DNA of 64,000 nt from an uncultured Chthonomonadaceae bacterium (lineage in GTDB: Bacteria > Armatimonadota > Chthonomonadetes > Chthonomonadales > Chthonomonadaceae): NCBI GenBank assembly GCA_963835065.1, contig CAWIEK010000044.1:192001-256000 (forward strand). Reading direction: 5' to 3'. A program made the translations under genes and the position numbers. The number at the start of each line of letters is the position of its first letter. Positions within the stretch are counted from its first letter, which is position 1. Below are positions 19,611 to 35,599 of this stretch, piece by piece. The notes below the pieces were generated by a model. That model did not search any database. It saw only the letters and a program-made list of their open reading frames with translations, and was not told the DNA's origin.

Positions 19611-20666
19611 ATGGACACAAAATCACAATCGGCAATCCCCAATCCACAACCCCCAATCGAAAATCGGCAATCGGCAACCGTCAATCCGCCCCCGCCAGTT
19701 GAGAACAATCCGCTTCCGGTGGGTGGCGATGCGGATAAGTTGCTGGCGGACGCGGCGAAACGGAAGAAGATCGAGGCGGACTTGCGCGGCATGGGCATGT
19801 CACCCTTCGAGATACAAAAACTGCTTAATGCCGATTCGCATACGTTTGATGCCGAGGCCGCGCCTGCGCTGTCCGCTCCCACGAATACCTCTGCTTTTCC
19901 CGCCCGTGCCGCTGTTTCCGCTCCGTCGTCCCTGCCGCCCCTGCCCCTGCCGCCCACGCCGGCAAAGTCCGCCAAACCCGCCCGCGCTTCCCTGGAATCC
20001 ATGCAGGCGTATGCGGCGGAATTGATGGCGCAAAAGGCCGCCGCGCAGGTGCAGACGGTGCGGGAAGTGTCCCTCGACCTGCCGCCGTTCCGCGAGTCCT
20101 CCCTGCAGGAAGTGCGGCAGGCGGAACCTCTCTTACGCGATGCGGCCATGCTGCGGCGCAAAGAGAAATTTCGAGACGCGGAAATCAAGGCCCGCGAGGC
20201 GCTGCAATTCGTGCCCAAAGACGCCGCCGCTTTGGAATTGCTCGGCGACATTGTGCAGGGCGTGGCCCGCATTGATGAAGCGCTTGCTCTTTACAAACGC
20301 GCTCTGGAAGCCGACCCCAAACGCTCGTCTGCGGAGCGCAAGTACGGCGAACTGCTGGTTTTACAGCAAAACTGGAACGCCGTTGACCCGGAAGCCGTTG
20401 ACCGCAACCCCTGGTTTGCCCGCCTGCTGTCCCTGCTCCTGCCCGGCCTGGGACAATTCCACAACGGCGAAATCGGCAAGGGCTTGTTTTTCCTCGGACT
20501 GGACGCGGTTTGCTTCTTTCTGCTGCGCTCCCCCTACGGCTTCGGCACCCACCACCCCATCGGCCTCAGCCAGGTCGCCTGCATCGTCCTGACCGTCGTA
20601 GTCTACATCGCAGCCCTCGCCGATACCAATGTCGTCGTCCAAACCGGCCCCCGGCAACGCGGATGA
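19611..20666 (+). CDS. TPR-containing membrane protein
   Basis: TPR helices; LSLLLPGLGQFHNG motif and TM segments. Confidence 0.75.
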   Translation: MDTKSQSAIPNPQPPIENRQSATVNPPPPVENNPLPVGGDADKLLADAAKRKKIEADLRGMGMSPFEIQKLLNADSHTFDAEAAPALSAPTNTSAFPARAAVSAPSSLPPLPLPPTPAKSAKPARASLESMQAYAAELMAQKAAAQVQTVREVSLDLPPFRESSLQEVRQAEPLLRDAAMLRRKEKFRDAEIKAREALQFVPKDAAALELLGDIVQGVARIDEALALYKRALEADPKRSSAERKYGELLVLQQNWNAVDPEAVDRNPWFARLLSLLLPGLGQFHNGEIGKGLFFLGLDAVCFFLLRSPYGFGTHHPIGLSQVACIVLTVVVYIAALADTNVVVQTGPRQRG

Positions 20667-20669
20667 AAT

Positions 20670-20803
20670 TGAACCACCAAGACACCAAGAACACCAAGAG
20701 AAGAAAAGAAGAAAACAGATGAATAAATTGTGGTTGAACTGATGTTCTTTTCTTTCGCTTTTCTTATTGTCTTTATTGGTGTTCTTGGTGTCTTGGTGGT
20801 TCA
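20670..20803. repeat. Palindromic element with perfect 28-bp terminal IR between convergent genes
   Basis: TGAACCACCAAGACACCAAGAACACCAA and its reverse complement; overlaps the tatD stop codon. Confidence 0.85.
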
Positions 20804-21722: not shown

Positions 21723-22391
21723 ATGTTTGGAATTCGTTCATCACGCACGATTCTCGTCACTTTATCGCTTCCTATAGCGGTTTCCACTCTGCTGCTGACG
21801 CCCAACGTGGCGCGGGCGGAACAGTTTGTCCTGTTCGATGTCACCTTTACGTTTACGAAAATGGATGCGGATAATTCGACGCCGAGCAAGTCGCATTACT
21901 ATGTCAAGGGAGCGGCGATCAATGCCAAGAGGCCGAAAGACTGGACAAGCCCAATTAACTACCGCAACGGCACGGTTCATATCCGAACCGAGGTTCTGGA
22001 CCGGCCTGCCGACGGCGAACCTGTGCAATGGAGCCTGTGCTACATTCCCAATCGTGGGCAGGGCAACGGATACGGATGCACGGGAACCAATACCTACAAT
22101 GCGAAGGGCGTCTTTGATAAGGACGTTTCCATGAAGTCGTTTTGGGAGAACGACGCGATTGTCTGGACGGAAGGCATCAAGCAGATGGACCTGGTGATGA
22201 AGGACAAGGACGGCAACAAAGCCCACACCCGCGCCGATCCCGAAAAGTTCTTCCCGACCCGTGTTCGCATTATCATGGTTCAGGTTTCTGAGGGCGCAAA
22301 GTACGACCCCAATCTCGTGCCCAACATCCCCCATCCCAAACCCGCCGACAAGCCGAAAGAGGGCGCGGCTTCCACATCGGGGGCGAAATAG
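21723..22391 (+). CDS. Secreted hypothetical protein
   Basis: GGGAGG RBS, signal peptide ending ARA, open frame. Confidence 0.7.
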   Translation: MFGIRSSRTILVTLSLPIAVSTLLLTPNVARAEQFVLFDVTFTFTKMDADNSTPSKSHYYVKGAAINAKRPKDWTSPINYRNGTVHIRTEVLDRPADGEPVQWSLCYIPNRGQGNGYGCTGTNTYNAKGVFDKDVSMKSFWENDAIVWTEGIKQMDLVMKDKDGNKAHTRADPEKFFPTRVRIIMVQVSEGAKYDPNLVPNIPHPKPADKPKEGAASTSGAK

Positions 22392-22456
22392 CGCCCACAT
22401 CCTCTGCGGATAACACAATCATTGGCCGCGATGTCGCGCCGATAAGGAACAAGTCT

Positions 22457-23458
22457 ATGTTTTTCTCTTTCCATTCTCTGATATGCGGCGGCTGCAAGTT
22501 TGTTCGTACGGTTCAGCGCGAAAACCTGCTTCGCAGCGCGCGGGCCGGCCTGCTCGGTTCTGCGCTGGCGTTCCTGATGGCCGGTAGCTGCCCTGTAACA
22601 GCGGGGGCGCAACTGACGATTGATAATCCAAACGGCGTGGGAAGCACAGCCTTTGGGGGCATTGATGGCAGCCGCGTCGTCGGCGGGTATGTAGACAGCA
22701 TGATGCATGATCATGGCTTTATCTACGATGGTCACGCTTTCACGCCGCTGGACGACCCGAATGGTGTTTCAACCGATCCCTTCGCAATCTCCGGGAACAA
22801 TATCGTAGGCGAATACACCGATGGCGTGGGGCAGACTCACGGATTCTTGTATAATGGAACCGCGTTCAGCACGCTCGACGTTCCCCTGAGCCTGGAAACC
22901 GTCGCGTACGGCATTTCGGGCGGCAATATCGTCGGCGAATATCTGGATAGTTCCTTTCATGTTCTGGGTTTTCTGTACGACGGCCACACCTTCACGACGC
23001 TGAACGGCCCGGTGGGCGCGACGCAAACGGTGGCCTACGGCATTGCGGGCAACATGATCGTCGGAACCTACGCGGACGCCACAGGCACGGATCACGGCTT
23101 TCTGTATGACGGCGCGACTTATACGACGTTCACTGATCCCAATGCGGGAACCGGTTTTGACGTCGGCACGTATGCCAGCGCAATTCAGGGCAATACAATC
23201 TTAGGCTCCTATACGGACGCGAGCCACACCAATCACGGCTTCCTGTATGATGGCGCGAACTTTACCGCGATAGACAACCCGCTTGCCGGGCCGGGAGGGA
23301 CATTCGCGTTCGGCCTTTCCGACGGCAGGATTTCGGGCACTTACTACGACGCGCAGGGCAATACGCATGGCTACGTCGTTCCCGAACCCGGCTGTATTGC
23401 TCTGCTCGGCGGATTTGCCCTGTCGCTGCTTCCCCTCGTCCGCCGCCGACACAAGTAA
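22457..23458 (+). CDS. PEP-CTERM surface protein with HGFLYDG beta-propeller-like repeats
   Basis: About six repeats of GISG.NIVG.Y.D....HGFLYDG; C-terminal VPEP-TM-RRRHK. Confidence 0.9.
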   Translation: MFFSFHSLICGGCKFVRTVQRENLLRSARAGLLGSALAFLMAGSCPVTAGAQLTIDNPNGVGSTAFGGIDGSRVVGGYVDSMMHDHGFIYDGHAFTPLDDPNGVSTDPFAISGNNIVGEYTDGVGQTHGFLYNGTAFSTLDVPLSLETVAYGISGGNIVGEYLDSSFHVLGFLYDGHTFTTLNGPVGATQTVAYGIAGNMIVGTYADATGTDHGFLYDGATYTTFTDPNAGTGFDVGTYASAIQGNTILGSYTDASHTNHGFLYDGANFTAIDNPLAGPGGTFAFGLSDGRISGTYYDAQGNTHGYVVPEPGCIALLGGFALSLLPLVRRRHK

Positions 23459-23483
23459 CATGCGTATGCGGATGGTCTTACTT

Positions 23484-24422
23484 TTATCTGGTGTCTCCAT
23501 CAGGACAGCGGCCTCCTTTAGGGTGGCGCAGGGTCAGGTAGAGGTCATTATGGGCAATGTCGAAGATGATATTGAACCGCATTAGGATTTCGCTGCCGAT
23601 GATGCTCATTTTCTGTGTGCCAATGGCGCCCGCAAAGAAGCCTACCGGCACATCCGAGATGTTAGAACTGCCAAGCGCAAATAGGGGCAGCAAGCCTTTT
23701 TTCACTTTGATCGTGTGTCCAAACGAGTCCTTCAAGCTGGATTCGGCGGTGATCTTGATTTTCCCGTCTATGCCGGATTGCGCTGCGAAGGCATCGTCTA
23801 AAAGGAGGCCCCCGGAATAGCCGGAATGAAGGAGAAACTTGCGCGTATAGGTTTTCCCTTCCATCAGGCAACTGCCCTCAACCAGAAGCTGTCCGTTTTG
23901 GTTTTCAATTTTGAGGCGCTCGTACTTTTCCACTTTGCGAGGGAGGTTTTCATGAAGCACGATGCGGCGATGATCGAAATCTATTTCCACAATCCGCTTC
24001 TGAAAGAAATTAAGGCCAAACTTACCGTCGGTGTTGTTACCGGAGAGTTTGTCCTCCCAAATGTCCATGTTACCGCGCTGTAGAGGACCAAGCTGAACCC
24101 GGTTCCCTTTGCTGAAGCGCGAGTCTGTGTTGCCTCCCCAGGCCTTCACCTTATTCCTGCCGGTAAATTTGACGCTCTTTGATTTTCGCGCCGCGTCCTC
24201 AGTTAAGGTCACATCGCTGGCTGCCGTATGCAGCATAAGATGCAATGTGTCCTTGTTGTTGAGTACGGCGCTTACGACGATGTTGTTAGAAGCGGTAAGC
24301 GTAAAAGGGATGGTGACCTCACCCTGCTCCTCTTGTGAGGCGCGAAGAGTTTGATTCGTGAAGGCGGTTAACACCAGGCCGGCTAACGCGACAACGGCGA
24401 TCCATTGGTATAATCGCTGCAT
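23484..24422 (-). CDS. Secreted two-lobed retropepsin/aspartyl-protease-like protein (Asp replaced by His)
   Basis: LMLHTAA...DGKFGLNF and FLLHSGY...SIIGSEIL lobes. Confidence 0.75.
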   Translation of the reverse strand: MQRLYQWIAVVALAGLVLTAFTNQTLRASQEEQGEVTIPFTLTASNNIVVSAVLNNKDTLHLMLHTAASDVTLTEDAARKSKSVKFTGRNKVKAWGGNTDSRFSKGNRVQLGPLQRGNMDIWEDKLSGNNTDGKFGLNFFQKRIVEIDFDHRRIVLHENLPRKVEKYERLKIENQNGQLLVEGSCLMEGKTYTRKFLLHSGYSGGLLLDDAFAAQSGIDGKIKITAESSLKDSFGHTIKVKKGLLPLFALGSSNISDVPVGFFAGAIGTQKMSIIGSEILMRFNIIFDIAHNDLYLTLRHPKGGRCPDGDTR

Positions 24423-24451
24423 GAAAGTTTTCCTTTGGAATTATTCAGCGC

Positions 24452-25009
24452 TCATTCGATCCCTAATGGGGGAGTATGAAAATACGCCGTCGTTTCCTCC
24501 TGTGCTTTGCCGTCCGATAGTTTCGTCAGGCCGGCGTGGAAAGCGGCGACCAGCAGGCTGCCCGCCATTATCAGACCCCGCCGAAAGGCGGCCTTCGGAG
24601 TTCGGAGTTCGGCATCGGGGAGGTGCTGCTCCACCTACGCCACATCGAACACCTGATGGTAGATGCGGTTGCGCGCGGTGAGCAAGCCCGACGCCACCTT
24701 GCATACCCCCGACATCTTCAAGATGGCCGCACAGTGGATTGGTTTCGTCGTCCCGAACGCGCCTGCCCCGCCGCATCTGCCGGTACAGGTCCAGCAAAGC
24801 GGTAAGATCGGCTTCGCTCTTGAGCAGGCGGTTGCGCACAAAAGCCAGGTTGTCGTCGCTCTCCTTCGCGCTGTGCGACAAAAACAGGTCATGGCATAGC
24901 CGGTCTACATCTCGATTTTCGATTTTCGATTTTCGATTTTCGACTCGGCAATGGCGCGGCAAAGGCGCTGCGTCAGGTACGGATGCCCGCCCGTCCAGTA
25001 CATAATTCG
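24452..25009 (-). pseudogene. Fragment of an AAA-like (AAA_35-type) ATPase gene
   Basis: [45 protein letters not shown]; frameshifts and a TAG at the expected Trp. Confidence 0.7.
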
Positions 25010-25093
25010 CTTGAGGGTTGAGAGGGAGGATAGTGATGAGTGATGAGTGATGAGTGTGCATCCAATTCATCCTTCATCCTTCCGCCTTCATCC

Positions 25094-25200
25094 TTAGCCG
25101 CAACGGGCCGTGTCAGGGCGGAAATCAGCGACTCGGCTTCCTGCGCCGAGATTTTGCCGTCTTGCAGCAGTTGCAGCACTCGCATTACGTTATCGTCCAT
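25094..25200 (-). pseudogene. 5' fragment of a SHOCT-like-domain gene
   Basis: MDDNVMRVLQLLQDGKISAQEAESLISAL runs into heptamer repeats. Confidence 0.6.
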
Positions 25201-25383
25201 GGGTTCGAGTCCTCTGTGTGAAAATTGAAACGATTCGAACGTATACGACGAATCCGCCATGGGGTTCAAAACTCCTGTGTATTCTTTAGCCGGTCGGCCC
25301 TTGACTGCCCACCGAGCCGCGAATGTAAGGTCAGGGACGCGGGCAAAGTCCTGGCTCCCACCAAATACTTTACAGACAACCAC

Positions 25384-25413
25384 TTGACACAACCGGACAG
25401 GGGATTGTACGAT
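25384..25413 (+). promoter_or_regulatory. Sigma70-type promoter upstream of the nucleotidyltransferase operon
   Basis: TTGACA-18 bp-TACGAT. Confidence 0.5.
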
Positions 25414-25565
25414 AAACATATTATGGGTGGGCATCATCCCTCCAATGCCGCATATCTCTTAGAACTCAGGCGGGACGCGGGGCTGCTTTCCCCGGAAAAG
25501 CCTCTTGTGCTGAACAAAGCCTCTTGATAGAAGCAGACGCCATGCAAAGTCAGCAAGGAACAACC

Positions 25566-25796
25566 ATGAACGAAGCCGCGCAGGAAGTCGAAGCAGAAGA
25601 ACCGGAAGATCATCTCGGTATGACGCCGGAGCAGTGGGCGCAGTTCAAAGCGTTCACCAGCGGGTTCGGCGACCAGGATGAAAACGGAATTGACCTTTCC
25701 CTGTTACGTGAAAACCTGAAATTAACGCCTACGGAGCGAATTGAAAGAATGAGACGCGCGATGCCGTTGATTATGGAGATGCGCCGTGCCCGATAA
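25566..25796 (+). CDS. Small protein partnered with a nucleotidyltransferase
   Basis: DENGIDLSLLRENLKLTPTERI motif; overlaps the next gene. Confidence 0.7.
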   Translation: MNEAAQEVEAEEPEDHLGMTPEQWAQFKAFTSGFGDQDENGIDLSLLRENLKLTPTERIERMRRAMPLIMEMRRAR

Positions 25797-26298
25797 TCCA
25801 CCTGATTTCCGCCCGGTTCTCGAAACGCTGATTGCCAATAATGTTCGCTTTGTTGTCATCGGCGGTTTGGCAATGGCGGCGCTTGGCAGCGCCTACGTCA
25901 CATTCGACATTGATGTTGGCTATGCGCGTGACAGGCAGAACATTACCGCGATGCGAGTAGCATTGTCGGGTTTGAACCCGCGCTTGCGAGGATTTCCCGA
26001 AGGGCTTCCTTTTGTATGGGATGATCAGACACTGCGAGGCGCGGCCAATATGACGCTCGAAACCAGCGTCAGCCCGGTTGATATATTGAGCAATATACCC
26101 GGCATAGACTCGTTTGAGGGTTTGTGGGAGCGAAGCGTTATACGGCCTCTTTACGGATTGGCAGTTCACGTCGCTTCCATAGAAGACTTAATTTCCATGA
26201 AGCGCGCCGCCAACCGCCCCAAAGACCAGAACCACATTCTGGAGTTGCTGGCGTTGAAGAAGTTGCTTGCGGCGGAAAACAACGAGAGAAATTTGTAA
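25786..26298 (+). CDS. Nucleotidyltransferase (DUF6036-like)
   Basis: FVVIGGLA...TFDIDV and LISMKRAANRPKD. Confidence 0.85.
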   Translation: MPDNPPDFRPVLETLIANNVRFVVIGGLAMAALGSAYVTFDIDVGYARDRQNITAMRVALSGLNPRLRGFPEGLPFVWDDQTLRGAANMTLETSVSPVDILSNIPGIDSFEGLWERSVIRPLYGLAVHVASIEDLISMKRAANRPKDQNHILELLALKKLLAAENNERNL

Positions 26299-26978
26299 TG
26301 AGAACAATGCCTTTTGTTGCTTTACCTATTCGAGCCGTTCTGTGGAGCGGGGCGGTTTTATACGGAATAGTATGTGGCGGGATAGCCGCTTCGGCTGCTT
26401 CGCCACAACAAAAACAGGCTGTTGCCAATTCAGACCTTTTAACCGGCGCGATTTTGGACAGAAGCGCAACAGTTCAGCAAGCCTTGGTTCGTGGAGCCGA
26501 TCCTAATCAATATGACGCTCATGGCAATACTCCGCTGGGTTATGCAGCCGAGGGAACAAATACCCATATTGTGAAAATGCTGCTTGCGCATGGCGCTGAT
26601 CCTACATTACGCCAGTATGCCGGTGTCACTCCCCTTATTGAAGCCGCCAATCACCCTTATCGCAACGCTTCCGACACGAAAAACGCTTTGAGCATTATTC
26701 GACTTTTACTGTCATACGACGCACAGGTGAATGCCCAGGATAATCGGGGCATGACAGCGTTGATTGATGCATCGTACCAGGGCAATGCTGCCGCCGTTCG
26801 ACTTTTGTTACAGAATGGGGCGAAGGCTTCCCTTCAGAACAACCGGGGAAATACAGCGTTGAAAATGGCGCAAGAACGTTTGAAGAGAGAGCAAAGCAAT
26901 GCAAAGCGGCAACAACTTCAGGCCGTTGTTAAATTTCTCAGGCACAGTTTCAGCAGGAAAGAACTTGACGCGCAGTGA
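26298..26978 (+). CDS. Secreted ankyrin repeat protein
   Basis: GNTPL, GVTPL, GMTAL and GNTAL repeats; signal peptide; TAATG coupling. Confidence 0.92.
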   Translation: MRTMPFVALPIRAVLWSGAVLYGIVCGGIAASAASPQQKQAVANSDLLTGAILDRSATVQQALVRGADPNQYDAHGNTPLGYAAEGTNTHIVKMLLAHGADPTLRQYAGVTPLIEAANHPYRNASDTKNALSIIRLLLSYDAQVNAQDNRGMTALIDASYQGNAAAVRLLLQNGAKASLQNNRGNTALKMAQERLKREQSNAKRQQLQAVVKFLRHSFSRKELDAQ

Positions 26979-27056
26979 AATTTCAAGCCATGTCCAATCA
27001 GCGCCTCGGTAATTTGCTGCAAGTTCCACCAGGGGATATGGAACCTCTGGTACGTC

Positions 27057-27392
27057 GTGTTCTGGATAGGATCGAACGCCATTCATGATGTTTCCGGTTT
27101 GCCGCAAATGCCTATCGTTTACACGAACGATCCACTGCGTTTTGGCGGGTACATGCCGGAGCGAGCAGAGTACCAACGACAGTTTGCGCTTTCCCGTTCC
27201 GGGCCGTATCCTGAGTTGACATTGACGCATGAAATCGGTCATTTGCTGGACCATGCTCTGGGCGATTTTCATACTGAGCGGACGCCATCCCAGCACTGCT
27301 GCAGAAACATTGGAGTTGATGCGCGACGCAGGGTTGCTTTCACCGGAAAAGTCTCTCGTCTTGAACAAAGCATCCTGACTTTATTGCCGTAG
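27057..27392 (+). pseudogene. Fragment of an HEXXH metallopeptidase-like gene
   Basis: LTHEIGHLLDH; no convincing start, degenerate ends. Confidence 0.45.
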
Positions 27393-27410
27393 AGCGTTGT
27401 CAGTCACCTG

Positions 27411-27484
27411 AAACATCAGAACCCTATAGGAACTTATTGGCGTTGAAGAAGTTGTTGGCGGCGGAGTATAACGATCCGGTCTAA
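27411..27484 (+). repeat. Diverged copy of the nucleotidyltransferase 3' end
   Basis: KHQNPI..LLALKKLLAAEYNDPV* versus KDQNHILELLALKKLLAAENNERNL* (26221-26298). Confidence 0.85.
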
Positions 27485-27507
27485 AGCCGGTAAGTAGAGC
27501 GAACCCA

Positions 27508-28089
27508 ATGAAAGTTGTCTTGCACCTCCTTAAAAGGCCGTTTGTTTACCTGTTCGCTTTCGTCATGGCAACGTTAGATGCTATGCAGAAGGAGCAAAAG
27601 TATTCCTTCATTATTGATGGGCTTGACATAGACATCCGCTTTTTCAGCATGGCTGATGTACCAGTGCTGATGTTCTGTGATAAAAATAGACCACTTCCCA
27701 ATTTCCTTGTGGGCTGCGAGATTGATAAAGATGCGATGAGATCGCTTTTGGACACCTGCTGGAAGCAATATCGTGAGGAACAATTAGACAATGAGGAACA
27801 TAACTATTCGTGTACGGTAAAACCTGATTTCCTCAGAACCTTTCGCTATATTGTACATCAGGAGCGTTTAGAGCAGGAAGAAGTTCAACGAATACAACAG
27901 GAAGCCAGAAACCGCGCCGAGGAGGTGAGGAAATGGCTGGATGCTGGCGCGGATATTAATGCGACGGTACAACAGGTGAACGACAGGCGTTTTAATTGTC
28001 AGGTTGGCTGTACCGCGTTGAAGTTGGCGCAACTCTACCACGAACAATGGATTGTCCGTCTGCTCGTTATTAGAGGATCGAAGCATTAG
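27508..28089 (+). CDS. Hypothetical protein with a degenerate C-terminal ankyrin repeat
   Basis: WLDAGADINA...GCTALKLA...IVRLL; more AT-rich than its flanks. Confidence 0.6.
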   Translation: MKVVLHLLKRPFVYLFAFVMATLDAMQKEQKYSFIIDGLDIDIRFFSMADVPVLMFCDKNRPLPNFLVGCEIDKDAMRSLLDTCWKQYREEQLDNEEHNYSCTVKPDFLRTFRYIVHQERLEQEEVQRIQQEARNRAEEVRKWLDAGADINATVQQVNDRRFNCQVGCTALKLAQLYHEQWIVRLLVIRGSKH

Positions 28090-28114
28090 CATCTGTGGCA
28101 GGTTCAAGAGTAGG

Positions 28115-28153
28115 CTCGTGCAATTCTCCTAATTCGCGCAGTTGCGGCCAGAT
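28115..28153 (-). repeat. Diverged copy of the MFS transporter 3' end
   Basis: IWPQLRELGELHE versus VWPQLRELGELHE (28282-28320), with mostly synonymous differences. Confidence 0.85.
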
Positions 28154-28157
28154 GTGG

Positions 28158-28235
28158 CGGCAAGAACTTCAGGCTGTTGTCAAAGTTCTCAGGCAGGCTG
28201 AAGACAAAAACAGCCTTAAAAGTCAAAACAGATAG
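28158..28235 (+). repeat. Diverged copy of the ankyrin gene 3' end
   Basis: RQELQAVVKVLRQ...* versus RQQLQAVVKFLRH (26907-26945). Confidence 0.85.
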
Positions 28236-28263
28236 AACGGCAGAAATATAATCCGCTGCAAAT

Positions 28264-29538
28264 TTACCCTTCGGCAACGGTTTCGTGTAGTTCGCCGAGT
28301 TCGCGGAGTTGCGGCCAGACGCAGGCGACACCCAGGACGACGAGCAGCGTGCCGATGCCGCCGCTGACAACCGCGAAGACCGGACCGAGCCAACCCGCTA
28401 CCGTGCCCGACTCGAATGCGCCCAATTCATTGGAAGTGCTGACGAAAATGCTGTTTACGGCGGAAACGCGCCCGCGCATTTCGTCCGGGGCGCGTAATAA
28501 GAGCAGGGCGCTGCGCACGACCACGCTGATGTTGTCCAATGCCCCAAGTACGAACAGCATTATAAGCGACAGCCAGAACCAATGCGACACGCCGAACACG
28601 ATTGTCGCGATACCGAAGCCCGCCACCGCCCACAAGAACGCTTTGCCCGCCCGCTTGAATGGCGGGCGGTGCGCCACAAACAAGGCCATGCTGACCGCGC
28701 CGATAGACGGCATCGCCCGCAGCCAGCCCAATCCCGTCGGCCCGACATGCAGAATGTCTTTGGCATACACAGGCAGCAGCGCCGTCGCGCCGCCGAACAA
28801 AACCGCGAACAAGTCCAGCGTAATCGCCGCCATCAGAACGGGAGTGCGGCGCAAAAACTCGATGCCTGCCACGAGGGATTGCAGCGAGGGCGTTTCTCGC
28901 TTCTGCGCTTCCTGCCGCGCCACGCCGGGATTGCCCCGAATGGACGCGACCAAAACGGCATACGTCAATGCGCCCATCATCGCGGCCATATACGCGGGCG
29001 TGGCGCTATTCGTCAGGGCGATTGTCAGGCCACCCAATGCGGGGCCGATGGCCGACGCAAGCTGCCAGGCGTTGCTGCCCCACGTTACGGCATTCGTGAA
29101 CACTTCTCCGGGCACGACCTGGGGCATCAGCGTGGACGACGCGGGACCGGAAAACGCCCGCGCCACGCCGATAAAGAACAGGCATACGTACAGCCAGCCT
29201 ACGGGCGCGTTCTGCCGCGATACCAGCGCCATGCCGCCAAAGCATAGCGCCAGCACGAAGCGCATCCCAACGGCGATGTTCTTGCGATTGCCCCGATCCG
29301 CCACATAGCCGCCCGGCAGCGACAGCAGTATCACGGGCAGCACTTCCACCAACCCCACCAGCCCAAGCGAAAACGGCGTATGCGTCCGCTCGTAAAGCTG
29401 CCAGCCCACCGCCACGCTCGCCATCTGGTCGCCCAATGTGGACAGAAAACTGCTCGCCAACAGCCGCCGGAAATCCGGGAATTGCAGCGCGGCATACGGG
29501 TCGTGCCGAACCGGGCCGGCTTCCTCGCTTTGCGTCAT
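28264..29538 (-). CDS. MFS transporter (EntS/DUF894-like)
   Basis: GGYVADRGNRK motif A, LDLFAVLFGG, PDEMRGRV. Confidence 0.92.
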   Translation of the reverse strand: MTQSEEAGPVRHDPYAALQFPDFRRLLASSFLSTLGDQMASVAVGWQLYERTHTPFSLGLVGLVEVLPVILLSLPGGYVADRGNRKNIAVGMRFVLALCFGGMALVSRQNAPVGWLYVCLFFIGVARAFSGPASSTLMPQVVPGEVFTNAVTWGSNAWQLASAIGPALGGLTIALTNSATPAYMAAMMGALTYAVLVASIRGNPGVARQEAQKRETPSLQSLVAGIEFLRRTPVLMAAITLDLFAVLFGGATALLPVYAKDILHVGPTGLGWLRAMPSIGAVSMALFVAHRPPFKRAGKAFLWAVAGFGIATIVFGVSHWFWLSLIMLFVLGALDNISVVVRSALLLLRAPDEMRGRVSAVNSIFVSTSNELGAFESGTVAGWLGPVFAVVSGGIGTLLVVLGVACVWPQLRELGELHETVAEG

Positions 29539-29551
29539 TCAAGTTCCTTGA

Positions 29552-29640
29552 AGGCATCAGGCATCAGGCATTAGGCATTAGGCCAATGCACAAGTTGAAC
29601 AAGGCTTTTCCTAATGCCTAATGCCTGATGCCTGATGCCT
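29552..29640. repeat. Inverted heptamer arrays (AGGCATY)n...(RATGCCT)n
   Basis: Directly visible between the ABC binding-protein gene and the MFS gene. Confidence 0.85.
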
Positions 29641-30653
29641 CACAGAGTTTCCCCGCCCTTATCCACAGTGTCTTTCGTGTACAATTTGGTTCCGAGCGTG
29701 ATCTTCTTTTCGACGGGTTCTTTATGCAGAATTTTCAGGGCGGTTTCTATGGCTTCCGGGCCGCCGGTGGGGTACTGGAACGTGGCGGCCAAGATGCCGT
29801 CTTTCACGTAGCGCTGGCCTTCGTTGGGCAGGCCGTCAATGCCGACGAACTTGATGGTTTTTTCCCGGCCTTTGCCTTCCTGTCTGGCCGCCATATACGC
29901 GCCGTGCGCGCTGGGGTCGTTGGCTCCGTACACGGCGTCAATATCGGGGTGCGTAGACAGGGCGGAAGTCATTTCGCGCTGCGCGTTGGGTTCCATCCAC
30001 TGGCAGTCGGCGTCGAAAACGATTTTGATTTCCGTGCCCTTGATGCCTTCCATAAAGCCGTTGTGCCGGTCATGCGAGGGGATAGTGGTTTCCAGCCCCT
30101 TCAACTCCACGACATTGCCCTTGCCGCCAAGCGCTTTCGCCATGAACTTGCCCGCCTCGCGCCCGATTTTCACATTGTCGCTGCCGATGAAGCATGTGTA
30201 CTTGTCGCCCTCGACAGCGCGATCCAGCACGATGACGGGAATACCCGCGTCCATCGCTTCTTCAACCGGGCGCGTCAGGGGGCGCGACTCTTTGGGGCTG
30301 ATGATAATCAAGTCCACTTTCTGCTGCACGAATTCGCGCAGTTGTGCCTGCTGCGTTTCGCTCTTGTTCTGCGCGTCACGCTCGATCAGTTTTATTTCCG
30401 GGTGCTTGCCTGCCGCTTCTTCAATCTCTTTGTTCATCTGCACACGCCAGGGTTCGCCCAGATTGCACTGCGACATGCCGATAGTGTAAGTTTGCCCGGC
30501 AGAAGTGGAGGCGCTCGTTCCCGCCCCTTTGGTTCCACTGTCCGCGCTCCCGGCAGAACCCCCGGAACCGCCGCTTTGATTGTTGTTACATCCGGCGAAC
30601 GCCAGGCAGGTAAATGCCAGCGCCAGCGGTTTAATATTGGTTTTCAGTTTCAT
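29640..30653 (-). CDS. Sugar ABC transporter substrate-binding lipoprotein (RbsB-like)
   Basis: Lipobox FAGC, IPVIVLDR, IGSDN and VGIDG. Confidence 0.92.
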   Translation of the reverse strand: MKLKTNIKPLALAFTCLAFAGCNNNQSGGSGGSAGSADSGTKGAGTSASTSAGQTYTIGMSQCNLGEPWRVQMNKEIEEAAGKHPEIKLIERDAQNKSETQQAQLREFVQQKVDLIIISPKESRPLTRPVEEAMDAGIPVIVLDRAVEGDKYTCFIGSDNVKIGREAGKFMAKALGGKGNVVELKGLETTIPSHDRHNGFMEGIKGTEIKIVFDADCQWMEPNAQREMTSALSTHPDIDAVYGANDPSAHGAYMAARQEGKGREKTIKFVGIDGLPNEGQRYVKDGILAATFQYPTGGPEAIETALKILHKEPVEKKITLGTKLYTKDTVDKGGETL

Positions 30654-33269: not shown

Positions 33270-33300
33270 TGACGCTATTGGCGCTCGCTTGTGGCGGAAC

Positions 33301-33366
33301 TTACGCCAATGCCTTTTTGATGAGTGTGCCGCCGTTCGCGGTCAGGCGTTGGCAGCGGCCACTGTA
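33301..33366 (-). repeat. Direct-repeat copy of the DUF1501 3' end
   Basis: 61/66 nt identical to 34108-34173 by manual alignment, including the stop codon. Confidence 0.92.
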
Positions 33367-33454
33367 AGGAACTATGCTATACTATCACAGGATTTTGGAG
33401 GAAAGACGTGATTGCACAACACGAAAACTTTATCAAGGATAAGGAGGAAAAGCA

Positions 33455-33691
33455 TTGAAGACGATGCCTGCGTCGGAAGACATTATCGCTATGCTGGCGA
33501 GCGCACCAAAGGTTCTGGAGTTCACCCCCTCAGACGAGGCTAAAGCGCGCGTCTGGGATTTGGTAGCTCGTGAAAAGGCCGGTTTGCTGACGGAAGACGA
33601 GCGCAGTGAACTGGACCACTACGCGCAACTGGAACATATCATGCGACTGGTAAAGGCAAAGGCGCGGCAGAAACAGGCGACGGCAGAATGA
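33455..33691 (+). CDS. Small antitoxin-like protein
   Basis: AGGAGG RBS with TTG start; LLTEDERSELDHY..LEHIMRLVK; ATGA overlap with the HNH gene. Confidence 0.75.
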   Translation: MKTMPASEDIIAMLASAPKVLEFTPSDEAKARVWDLVAREKAGLLTEDERSELDHYAQLEHIMRLVKAKARQKQATAE

Positions 33692-34095
33692 GCGTGACGT
33701 ACATTCCGCAGGCGTTGCGTCGCGCTGTTCGGGAACGCGCGGCGAATCGTTGCGAGTATTGCGGCATCCATGAAGACGACACGGAATTTGGATGTGAAGT
33801 GGATCACATCATCAGCGAAAAGCACATGGGCAGGACGGAACTGGACAATCTTGCTTTTTCCTGTTTCTTTTGTAATCGCAATAAGGGCAGCGACATTGGT
33901 TCGGTGCGCTCGTCCGAGGATTCGGAGATTATTCGCTTTTTCAATCCACGCGCGGATGTCTGGTCAGAACACTTCGCTTTCGATGCGCGGCGGCACATAG
34001 TCCCCGCAACAGATATTGGGCGCGTGACCGCGCGGATTTTTGGTTTCAATGCGGAAAATCGTCTTTTAGAGCGTCAGGCGCTTGAGGAAGAATAA
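33688..34095 (+). CDS. HNH endonuclease (TA-like module)
   Basis: CEYC, VDHIISEKH, NLAFSCFFCNRNKG and FNPR. Confidence 0.92.
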   Translation: MSVTYIPQALRRAVRERAANRCEYCGIHEDDTEFGCEVDHIISEKHMGRTELDNLAFSCFFCNRNKGSDIGSVRSSEDSEIIRFFNPRADVWSEHFAFDARRHIVPATDIGRVTARIFGFNAENRLLERQALEEE

Positions 34096-34107
34096 AGGCG
34101 CGGGGAA

Positions 34108-35599
<1,492 letters not shown>

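Follow-up and report, generated by a model that had tools for sequence, protein, structure and literature searches.

How do the cut-off ends of several genes come to lie behind one another in the short interval between a nucleotidyltransferase (NTase) gene and a transporter gene? The question is raised by a locus in a 64,000-nucleotide stretch of an uncultured Chthonomonadaceae bacterium, here called the window, which covers positions 192001-256000 of contig C44 of genome G000 (8.0 Mb, 71 contigs, 92% complete). A preliminary description, made from the letters of the window, had reported the order NTase, ankyrin gene, fragment with a HEXXH motif, NTase tail, ankyrin-like open reading frame (ORF), MFS transporter tail, ankyrin tail and intact MFS end, and had proposed a stack of several versions of this interval, derived from related strains. 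This order is present in the sequence, and a repeat search recovered all three tails (NTase, MFS and ankyrin) within 26907-28320; it also found a fourth pair, from a small gene X, which the description had missed, and the stack begins further left, at 25424. The stranded tails are with high probability a real feature. The stacking proposal is supported and can be refined: the tails differ in origin, and about 30 loci of this kind, this one included, occur in the genome. We favour as the probable explanation that the locus is a recombination scar, left when a linear block from a second lineage entered by a homologous crossover in the ankyrin gene and was joined out of register on its right side.

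Three of the repeat pairs are direct repeats of intact gene ends, namely those of the NTase (26249-26285 and 27438-27474, 86%, with decayed similarity back to ~27376), the MFS transporter (28283-28319 and 28116-28152, 84%) and the ankyrin gene (39 bases, 26906-26944 and 28157-28195, 90%). The gene X pair, D4, comprises 25424-25527 and 27275-27378 (72%). The MFS tail keeps WPQLRELGELHE with seven base changes in exactly five of 12 codons, all of them synonymous, as the preliminary count of at least five had implied; 0 of 100,000 random trials did as well. The gene X pair has 14 synonymous and six non-synonymous codons. The NTase tail (two synonymous, two non-synonymous) shows a weak bias (P=0.03), and the ankyrin tail (two and three) shows none (P=0.46). 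The synonymous bias that the description had expected of the tails is thus clear only in the MFS and X tails.

The origin of the tails was traced with short-read contigs of four environmental runs (X1, X2, X3 and X4) mapped to the window, and with the genomes of two congeners (G001 and G002) and two further relatives (G005 and G023). One run is labelled soil metagenome, which together with the Atlas cluster of gene Y suggests an Armatimonadota soil bacterium as the likely host; X1 and X2 come from one study. The contigs are unphased, and 452 further pieces lie outside the listed set; run X4 held almost none of the sequence words of the window. Record 14 of run X3 joins 26904 directly to 28156 and skips 1,251 bases (26905-28155). 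It differs from the window at ten of the 105 bases before the joint and at none of the 137 after it (28156-28292). This contig does not represent a pop-out between the 39-base repeats, because a pop-out would leave the body of the intact ankyrin gene (ANK1) unchanged. Around the locus, six listed X3 contigs (1,408 bases across 22061-29959) show no differences from the window, and the MFS gene is identical in X3 over 28393-28570 and 29265-29581. Judged from these contigs, the X3 arrangement is best read as the state before insertion, and X3 would represent a strain that is near-clonal to the window in the flanks, has another ankyrin body and lacks the insert. X3 also has no cover over most of 26914-28110, but gaps occur in other parts too (9 of 30 bins empty), and we therefore relied on the joining contig alone.

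The second arrangement is seen in record 10 of run X2, which joins 28139 to 28307 and skips 28140-28306, so that the end of ORF ANK2 and the MFS tail run into an MFS body, with nine differences in 122 bases. The stranded MFS tail is therefore the end of a whole gene in X2, as expected from the earlier claim that it derives from another allele and not from a fresh local duplication. The MFS end of the congener G002 likewise resembles the stranded tail and not the intact end, and P0007, from another assembly, shares the intact (type A) end; thus, two types of MFS end exist as whole genes. Compared with the window, X1 and X2 differ by 3.5-10% in the listed flank contigs (12/342, 24/558, 26/348, 38/410; 19/289, 22/256) and mostly by about 1% inside 25461-28139 (2/404, 3/470, 3/413, 1/170; 6/553, 2/194, 1/123), with one contig at 12/368 as the exception. 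Both parental arrangements exist, and the degree of sequence identity changes from block to flanks. That the tails arose by tandem duplication in place, inside a single lineage, and then decayed is barely credible in view of these data, because the MFS tail carries only synonymous changes and ends a whole gene in X2, and because X3 has the ankyrin tail as the end of another allele. As judged from these alleles it is largely refuted for the young layer; the order X, AT (the small gene before the NTase), NTase and ankyrin gene is seen twice, and duplication with deletions could give the older layer.

ANK1 is identical to X3 over 26116-26333 and differs from it at ten positions in 26800-26904, where X1 and X2 show two listed differences each. 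This suggests that ANK1 is a hybrid of a resident 5' part and a donor 3' part, with a homologous crossover between ~26333 and 26834. In the recombination model, the resident would be an X3-type chromosome with the ankyrin gene facing the MFS gene. A donor block of X1/X2 type would enter by homologous recombination inside the ankyrin gene, at ~26333-26834, and would bring in the ankyrin end, genes Y and X, an old NTase tail and ANK2, stopping about 50 bases into the donor's MFS gene. At its right end a non-homologous join would let the resident resume inside the anchor gene, 39 bases before the ankyrin similarity ends, so that the resident ankyrin end would be pushed downstream rather than deleted. 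The ankyrin tail would then be the resident's and the MFS tail the donor's cut end; because the ankyrin and MFS genes converge, one join would strand two tails. The NTase and X tails may record older events of this kind, or deletions that followed them, which the donor lineage would already have carried; an NTase-anchored event, or a tandem X-AT-NTase-ankyrin unit trimmed by deletions, might account for this older layer. From these comparisons we infer the direction of transfer, a single-step origin, microhomology at the join and uptake by natural transformation. With G002 as a stand-in for the donor, the two sides of the join share GGCG (four bases, the window being one base short) and are otherwise unrelated, which is consistent with a GGCG microhomology as far as G002 can represent the donor. 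The tails themselves are probably inert. Their retention for the start signals of the next gene was rejected as an explanation, as the next gene lies within 100 bases in 36% of 28 events and in 37% of the background.

A crossover in the ankyrin gene could also have occurred with a circle. Here, the donor fragment would be circularised by end-joining and integrated by a single Campbell-type crossover, and a later deletion would trim the duplicate to 39 bases. In a study on E. coli conjugation, duplications of this sort, from recircularised donors, were present in 56 of 60 clones (109-950 bp in the 14 that were sequenced), which made them commoner than true homology-facilitated illegitimate recombination (HFIR) (PMC3240628), and a circular intermediate has been proposed for tip displacement in rhs loci (PMC2935791). 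The tail lengths found in G000 (32-339 bases genome-wide) and the other internal deletions at the locus (Y/X, and the NTase in G002) also suit this explanation. However, after one-step integration of a circle the gene upstream of the duplicate should be of resident type, yet ANK1 differs from X3 at the ten of 105 positions given above; the stranded copy should also begin as donor type, yet this copy equals X3 from its first base. Because both predictions fail, a second step is needed, and a circle with later deletion is still compatible with the focal join. Ku was absent from the matches in 5/5 genomes searched, which speaks against the circle and led us to reject Ku-type end joining. Altogether, we regard the circle as unlikely.

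Features of the locus, and a second case in the window.
Feature	Positions	Strand	Description
X0	25424..25527	+	stranded 3' end of small gene X, older layer; directly upstream of AT-NTase pair
AT	25566..25796	+	small 76-aa gene directly before the NTase
NT1	25786..26298	+	intact nucleotidyltransferase, DUF2204/DUF6036 (Pfam E=2.4e-6 and 2.2e-5)
ANK1	26298..26978	+	intact ankyrin gene (Pfam Ank_2 E=9.6e-22)
truncated Y	26990..27269	+	5' 93 codons of HEXXH gene Y (LPD1-like); frameshift near 27075
X1 tail (gene X)	27270..27378	+	3' end of gene X fused to truncated Y by internal deletion
NT2	27376..27484	+	stranded, decayed NTase 3' end, older layer
ANK2	27508..28089	+	193-aa ORF with one weak ankyrin-like repeat at the C-terminus
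MFS_B end (MFS tail)	28091..28155	-	cut 3' end of the MFS allele of the putative donor lineage
join	28155..28159	.	putative donor MFS end meets resident ankyrin end, out of register
ANK' tail	28156..28235	+	displaced 3' end of the putative resident ankyrin allele
MFS	28264..29538	-	intact resident transporter, type A end (Pfam MFS_1 and MFS_3)
second window case (repeat D5)	33296..34173	-	gene end 34103-34173 repeated at 33296-33366

Most of the left-hand stack is bridged by contigs of run X1, which link X0, AT and NTase (record 5, 25461-25864, two differences), NTase and ANK1, ANK1 and Y (record 1), and NT2 and ANK2 (record 4, 27383-27795, three differences, gapless). At the join of gene X to NT2 two X1 contigs abut, one of which passes the X stop by merely five bases. 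X1 and X2 diverge from the window at 27163, X1 rejoining at 27317, so their Y/X segment differs again. X0 matches residues 43-81 of the intact 89-aa X protein of G002 (41%), and an alignment of NT2 with NT1 and G002 shows small deletions. The fragment described as HEXXH is in fact composite, consisting of the first 93 codons of Y and the 3' end of the separate, ~89-aa gene X. Its Y part matches residues 1-29 and 29-93 of P0001, the full-length protein of 210 aa, at 97-98%, and the Atlas neighbours of Y include LPD1 clusters. G002 carries Y and X as an intact pair, as do 2 of 29 metagenome loci that contain relatives of Y. None of these 29 loci carried AT, NTase, ankyrin or MFS matches, and hence a conserved Y-X-AT-NTase operon is not shown beyond this locus. 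As a side observation, Y>X forms a two-gene module of an LPD1-like HEXXH protein and an 89-aa protein without NCBIfam or PADLOC match. In G002 (C3, L068:1471-2357) both genes lie behind a gene that we take, from its sequence, to be RNA 2'-phosphotransferase-like; at the same site in G000 (C27:9086-9349) X is kept and no Y match was found.

The ORF called ankyrin-like gives no Pfam ankyrin match as a whole protein, but its last 73 aa match Ank_2 (E=0.047), and Atlas contains ankyrin look-alikes of ANK2 with a low recognition score. As it is linked to a whole type B MFS gene in X2 record 10, ANK2 may be cargo of the donor lineage. AT is likely the antitoxin-like partner of the NTase, a role suggested by its relatives, which directly precede NTase relatives in 13 family loci besides that of the window; it has no NCBIfam and no PADLOC match. 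PADLOC returned only ankyrin-domain matches for ANK1 and none for AT, NTase, Y, X or ANK2. Promoter and terminator scans stayed at chance level, no RNA data set is listed as containing the locus, and a scan for the MFS tail pattern across metagenome contigs gave 0 matches.

G002 carries a third version of the slot, made up of AT, an NTase that has lost ~340 internal bases, a SUKH-3 gene and MFS. With the unstacked arrangements of the X3 and X2 contigs, it bears out the proposal of stacked versions. No integrase-like ORF was found in the G002 slot, two congeners and one further family genome having been sampled in depth. We also observed that in this slot (L031:14679-15557) only both ends of the NTase are kept behind AT, that the internal deletion lies at a TTT overlap, and that the SUKH-3 immunity gene follows. 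To the left of the stack, window 25079-25367 matches at 95% the beginning of a SHOCT-domain gene together with the sequence upstream of it. This gene is complete at ~66007-66300 of C54 in G000; at 25079-25367 its first part alone is present and runs into a decayed AAA-type fragment. A decayed minus-strand fragment at 24441-25016, ~70% like places in C44, C53, C54, C60 and C7, is probably a remnant of a multi-copy AAA-domain family.

Is the locus an isolated accident? A scan of G000, based on our own gene calls and local self-comparison, collected repeat pairs of 30-400 bases within 8 kb. The 468 pairs gave 34 rows in which the 3' end of a gene is repeated downstream outside called genes, compared with 8, 8 and 3 rows for 3' ends upstream, 5' ends downstream and 5' ends upstream, respectively. 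After dropping four rows (a both-strand double count, a haplotype duplicate, an internal repeat and a simple repeat) 30 cases remained, several with accessory rather than core host genes. Tandem or inverted 7-base intergenic repeats, seen in the window at 19612-19705, 20670-20803, 24911-24943, 25026-25098 and 29552-29640 and in very many genome copies, were left out of the scans as simple or high-copy. In ungapped rows, 381 codons were identical; synonymous changes affected 96 codons and non-synonymous ones 48. Of the 602 substitutions counted in a wider rescan, 315 were synonymous, where 24% would be expected, and indels occurred in 14 of 43 tails. A rescan of 373 low-copy pairs gave 44 coding 3'-downstream cases and 13, 12 and 7 in the other classes. 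In a comparison of orthologs in the congeners, the flank of the stranded tail adjoins the gene in 6/10 cases and that of the intact end in 1/10. The second case in the window concerns a 366-aa minus-strand gene, with a small ORF and an HNH nuclease gene (E=1.3e-12) between the copies; in G002 the gene is joined to the flank that lies behind the stranded copy. The same scan found six cases in 1.22 Mb of G002 and one in 0.40 Mb of G023. The case density in G002 is similar to that in G000, and the G001 sample differs; the idea that the pattern is special to G000, raised by a first congener sample (one case in 1.24 Mb), was removed for G002 by a second sample, and not for G001. This comparison of rates covers G000, G001, G002 and G023.

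The strain-duplicate haplotype contigs of G000 (92-99.6% alike) offer a view of the anchor. In the final 620 bases of its host gene, contig C14 differs from C63 and C13 by 17, 14 and 8-12 bases in every 200, and by 0-7 in the 16 bins before; this 620-base tract far exceeds the 57-base tail. We annotated 19 of the 34 rows, picked for housekeeping-looking hosts, which include DnaA, PyrH, RpsJ, a GalT-like protein, lactate permease (LctP), a KdpD-like protein, an RND permease, a helicase and one tyrosine recombinase. Their cargo, 71 of 76 ORFs (five short ones omitted) together with two from the window, includes matches to HNH, PIN, ParD/ParE, HEPN, AAA_21 with DUF4276, and one N6-methylase, most of the 73 ORFs being unmatched. 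A DNA comparison of the dnaA locus with G001 and G002 was swamped by dispersed repeats. Two islets showed further peculiarities. In the pyrH islet (L077, G000:C34:44886-49433) two cargo genes precede the stranded tail and their G001 homologs follow the gene after pyrH, so that the order is permuted between congeners. The lactate-permease islet of haplotype C8 (10102-11080), but not that of C20, holds a 970-base element present in at least six copies at 99%, probably an insertion sequence.

The position of many tails behind core genes calls to mind integrase-borne islets that have decayed, like CIMEs (cis-mobilizable elements), after tandem integration at gene 3' ends with replacement. As described in the paper that defines CIMEs, tyrosine-integrase elements often insert into housekeeping genes at the 3' end, and recombination genes are lost from CIMEs (PMC7563491); the two kinds of locus share an intact restored gene end, cargo, a displaced end and tandem stacking. 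Some hosts here are essential (rpsJ, pyrH, dnaA) and one is the tyrosine recombinase. On the other hand, ~30 unrelated targets face six tyrosine recombinases in the genome, none of them on contig C44, and no integrase or transposase family was matched by any of the 73 cargo ORFs. Unlike at a fixed-core att site, no motif is common to the 30 junctions (the best 5-mer occurs at 10, with a null mode of 9), and at both the focal join and C14 allele divergence extends upstream of the duplicate, contrary to what site-specific integration would predict; at the focal join we read this sequence as donor-type. Such an islet origin is therefore highly improbable.

The locus also resembles three other known processes. 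In the C-terminal displacement of rhs loci (PMC2935791) and the stacked effector-immunity arrays of the V. cholerae type VI secretion system (T6SS), for which HFIR has been proposed and a shifted-back 3' end described (PMC5361080), an incoming allele replaces a 3' end, the old end is pushed downstream and layers stack; stranded pieces vary in length and decay, and immunity-type genes, here ankyrin and SUKH-3, accumulate. We likewise find an intact gene followed by allelic 3' pieces of variable length, four at this locus. Their anchor, however, is a toxin gene with a variable tip, whereas here many unrelated genes serve, such as NTase and ankyrin genes and core genes (DnaA, PyrH, RpsJ, LctP); the tails are mostly synonymous variants, the peptide hardly changes with the exchanged end, and what is new comes after the stop codon. 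HFIR as described in PMC3240628 shares with our locus one homologous anchor (the switch within ANK1 and the C14 tract), one non-homologous join, an insert of ~1 kb and the absence of a mobile-element gene, and perhaps, with G002 as stand-in, a four-base microhomology, mostly 3-10 bp being reported there. HFIR is RecA-dependent and occurs during natural transformation, which is represented here by genes only: ComEC in 5/5 genomes, G000 included, and DprA in 4/5. The DprA match is split into two pieces in G001 (C2, at distant positions) and in G002 (C1), and whole in G005 and G023. Insertion with long target duplication, defined for restriction-modification genes and reported mostly in naturally competent species (PMC2853133), involves inserts below 20 kb, direct repeats above 30 bp of variable length and no other mobile element; a spacing of 1,251 bases, a 39-base repeat and no integrase or transposase match agree with this. 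By contrast, cargo here is mostly not restriction-modification (one N6-methylase in 73 ORFs, none at the focal locus), and the repeats, as diverged alleles (68-98%), have their ends near stop codons; cases listed for the restriction-modification systems are mostly 93-100% alike. We conclude that the mechanism works like HFIR or C-terminal displacement without all the defining features of either, and that it leaves a duplication and not a deletion.

Several observations weigh against the recombination model. Each parental joint is seen in a single contig (depth 2 to 3.6), no independent contig among those of the X runs bridges the join at 28155/28156, and the donor letters at this join are known only through the G002 stand-in, with one base missing in the window. 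X3 could be the sample from which the genome came, and two of its contigs differ from the window at 4/245 and 23/145 positions. HFIR usually deletes recipient DNA of a size similar to the insert (PMC3240628), whereas here the join inside the anchor duplicates 39 bases and, judged by X3 record 14, the replaced anchor is all that the resident has lost. We found no DprA in G000 (92% complete), in contrast to 4/4 relatives. The C14 tract gives no direction of transfer, and G001 yielded 0 cases in 0.82 Mb with the same scan. Lastly, when upstream intergenic repeats are included in the mirror class, the counts become 44 and 35 (p=0.37) and the 3' excess is gone, so the process need not be directional; a strictly 3'-directed machine is weakened by this restored symmetry and by 5' cases in G001 and G023.

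The unbridged join invites the suspicion that the assembly merged two co-occurring strains in the right-hand stack, or that this stack stems from a chimeric long read, all the more because both parents exist in soil runs and the genome contains duplicated haplotype contigs. Yet a path switch through shared sequence would re-enter the MFS gene in register, without a duplicate, and the Y/X segment of the window differs from X1 and X2, which depart at 27163. Independent contigs contain the left-hand layers, G002 and G023 show this pattern too, as do the two haplotypes C20 and C8, and many tails have decayed. We thus consider a chimera very unlikely, and retain recombination between lineages as the probable origin of the locus.

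The feature is an outcome of recombination and not a new functional system. By such events, small accessory genes (ankyrin, SUKH-3, toxin-antitoxin pairs) would accumulate behind conserved genes without an integrase. We tentatively suggest, as a possibility that may well prove wrong, that this lineage acquires genes genome-wide and without an integrase, any conserved gene serving as anchor for the incoming DNA; the resident would be rejoined 30-170 bases inside the anchor, and duplication would be routine; in the open-access part of the literature we found no paper on such a genome-wide pattern behind core genes. Homology-anchored capture has so far been measured in the laboratory as a rare event and proposed by comparison for toxin arrays. 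With both parental alleles of one event in environmental contigs, the linear-anchor, circle and integrase models become separable at base level, and a scar at ~30 genes provides a countable record of the entry of small defence-type genes without mobile-element machinery. Its signature, a synonymous-biased gene tail a few kb downstream, can be used to scan other taxa. If the suggestion is true, ~4 events per Mb would make this a main route by which toxin-antitoxin, immunity and defence islets arrive behind core genes such as dnaA, pyrH and rpsJ, and at the locus described here wild populations would reveal both parents of a single event.

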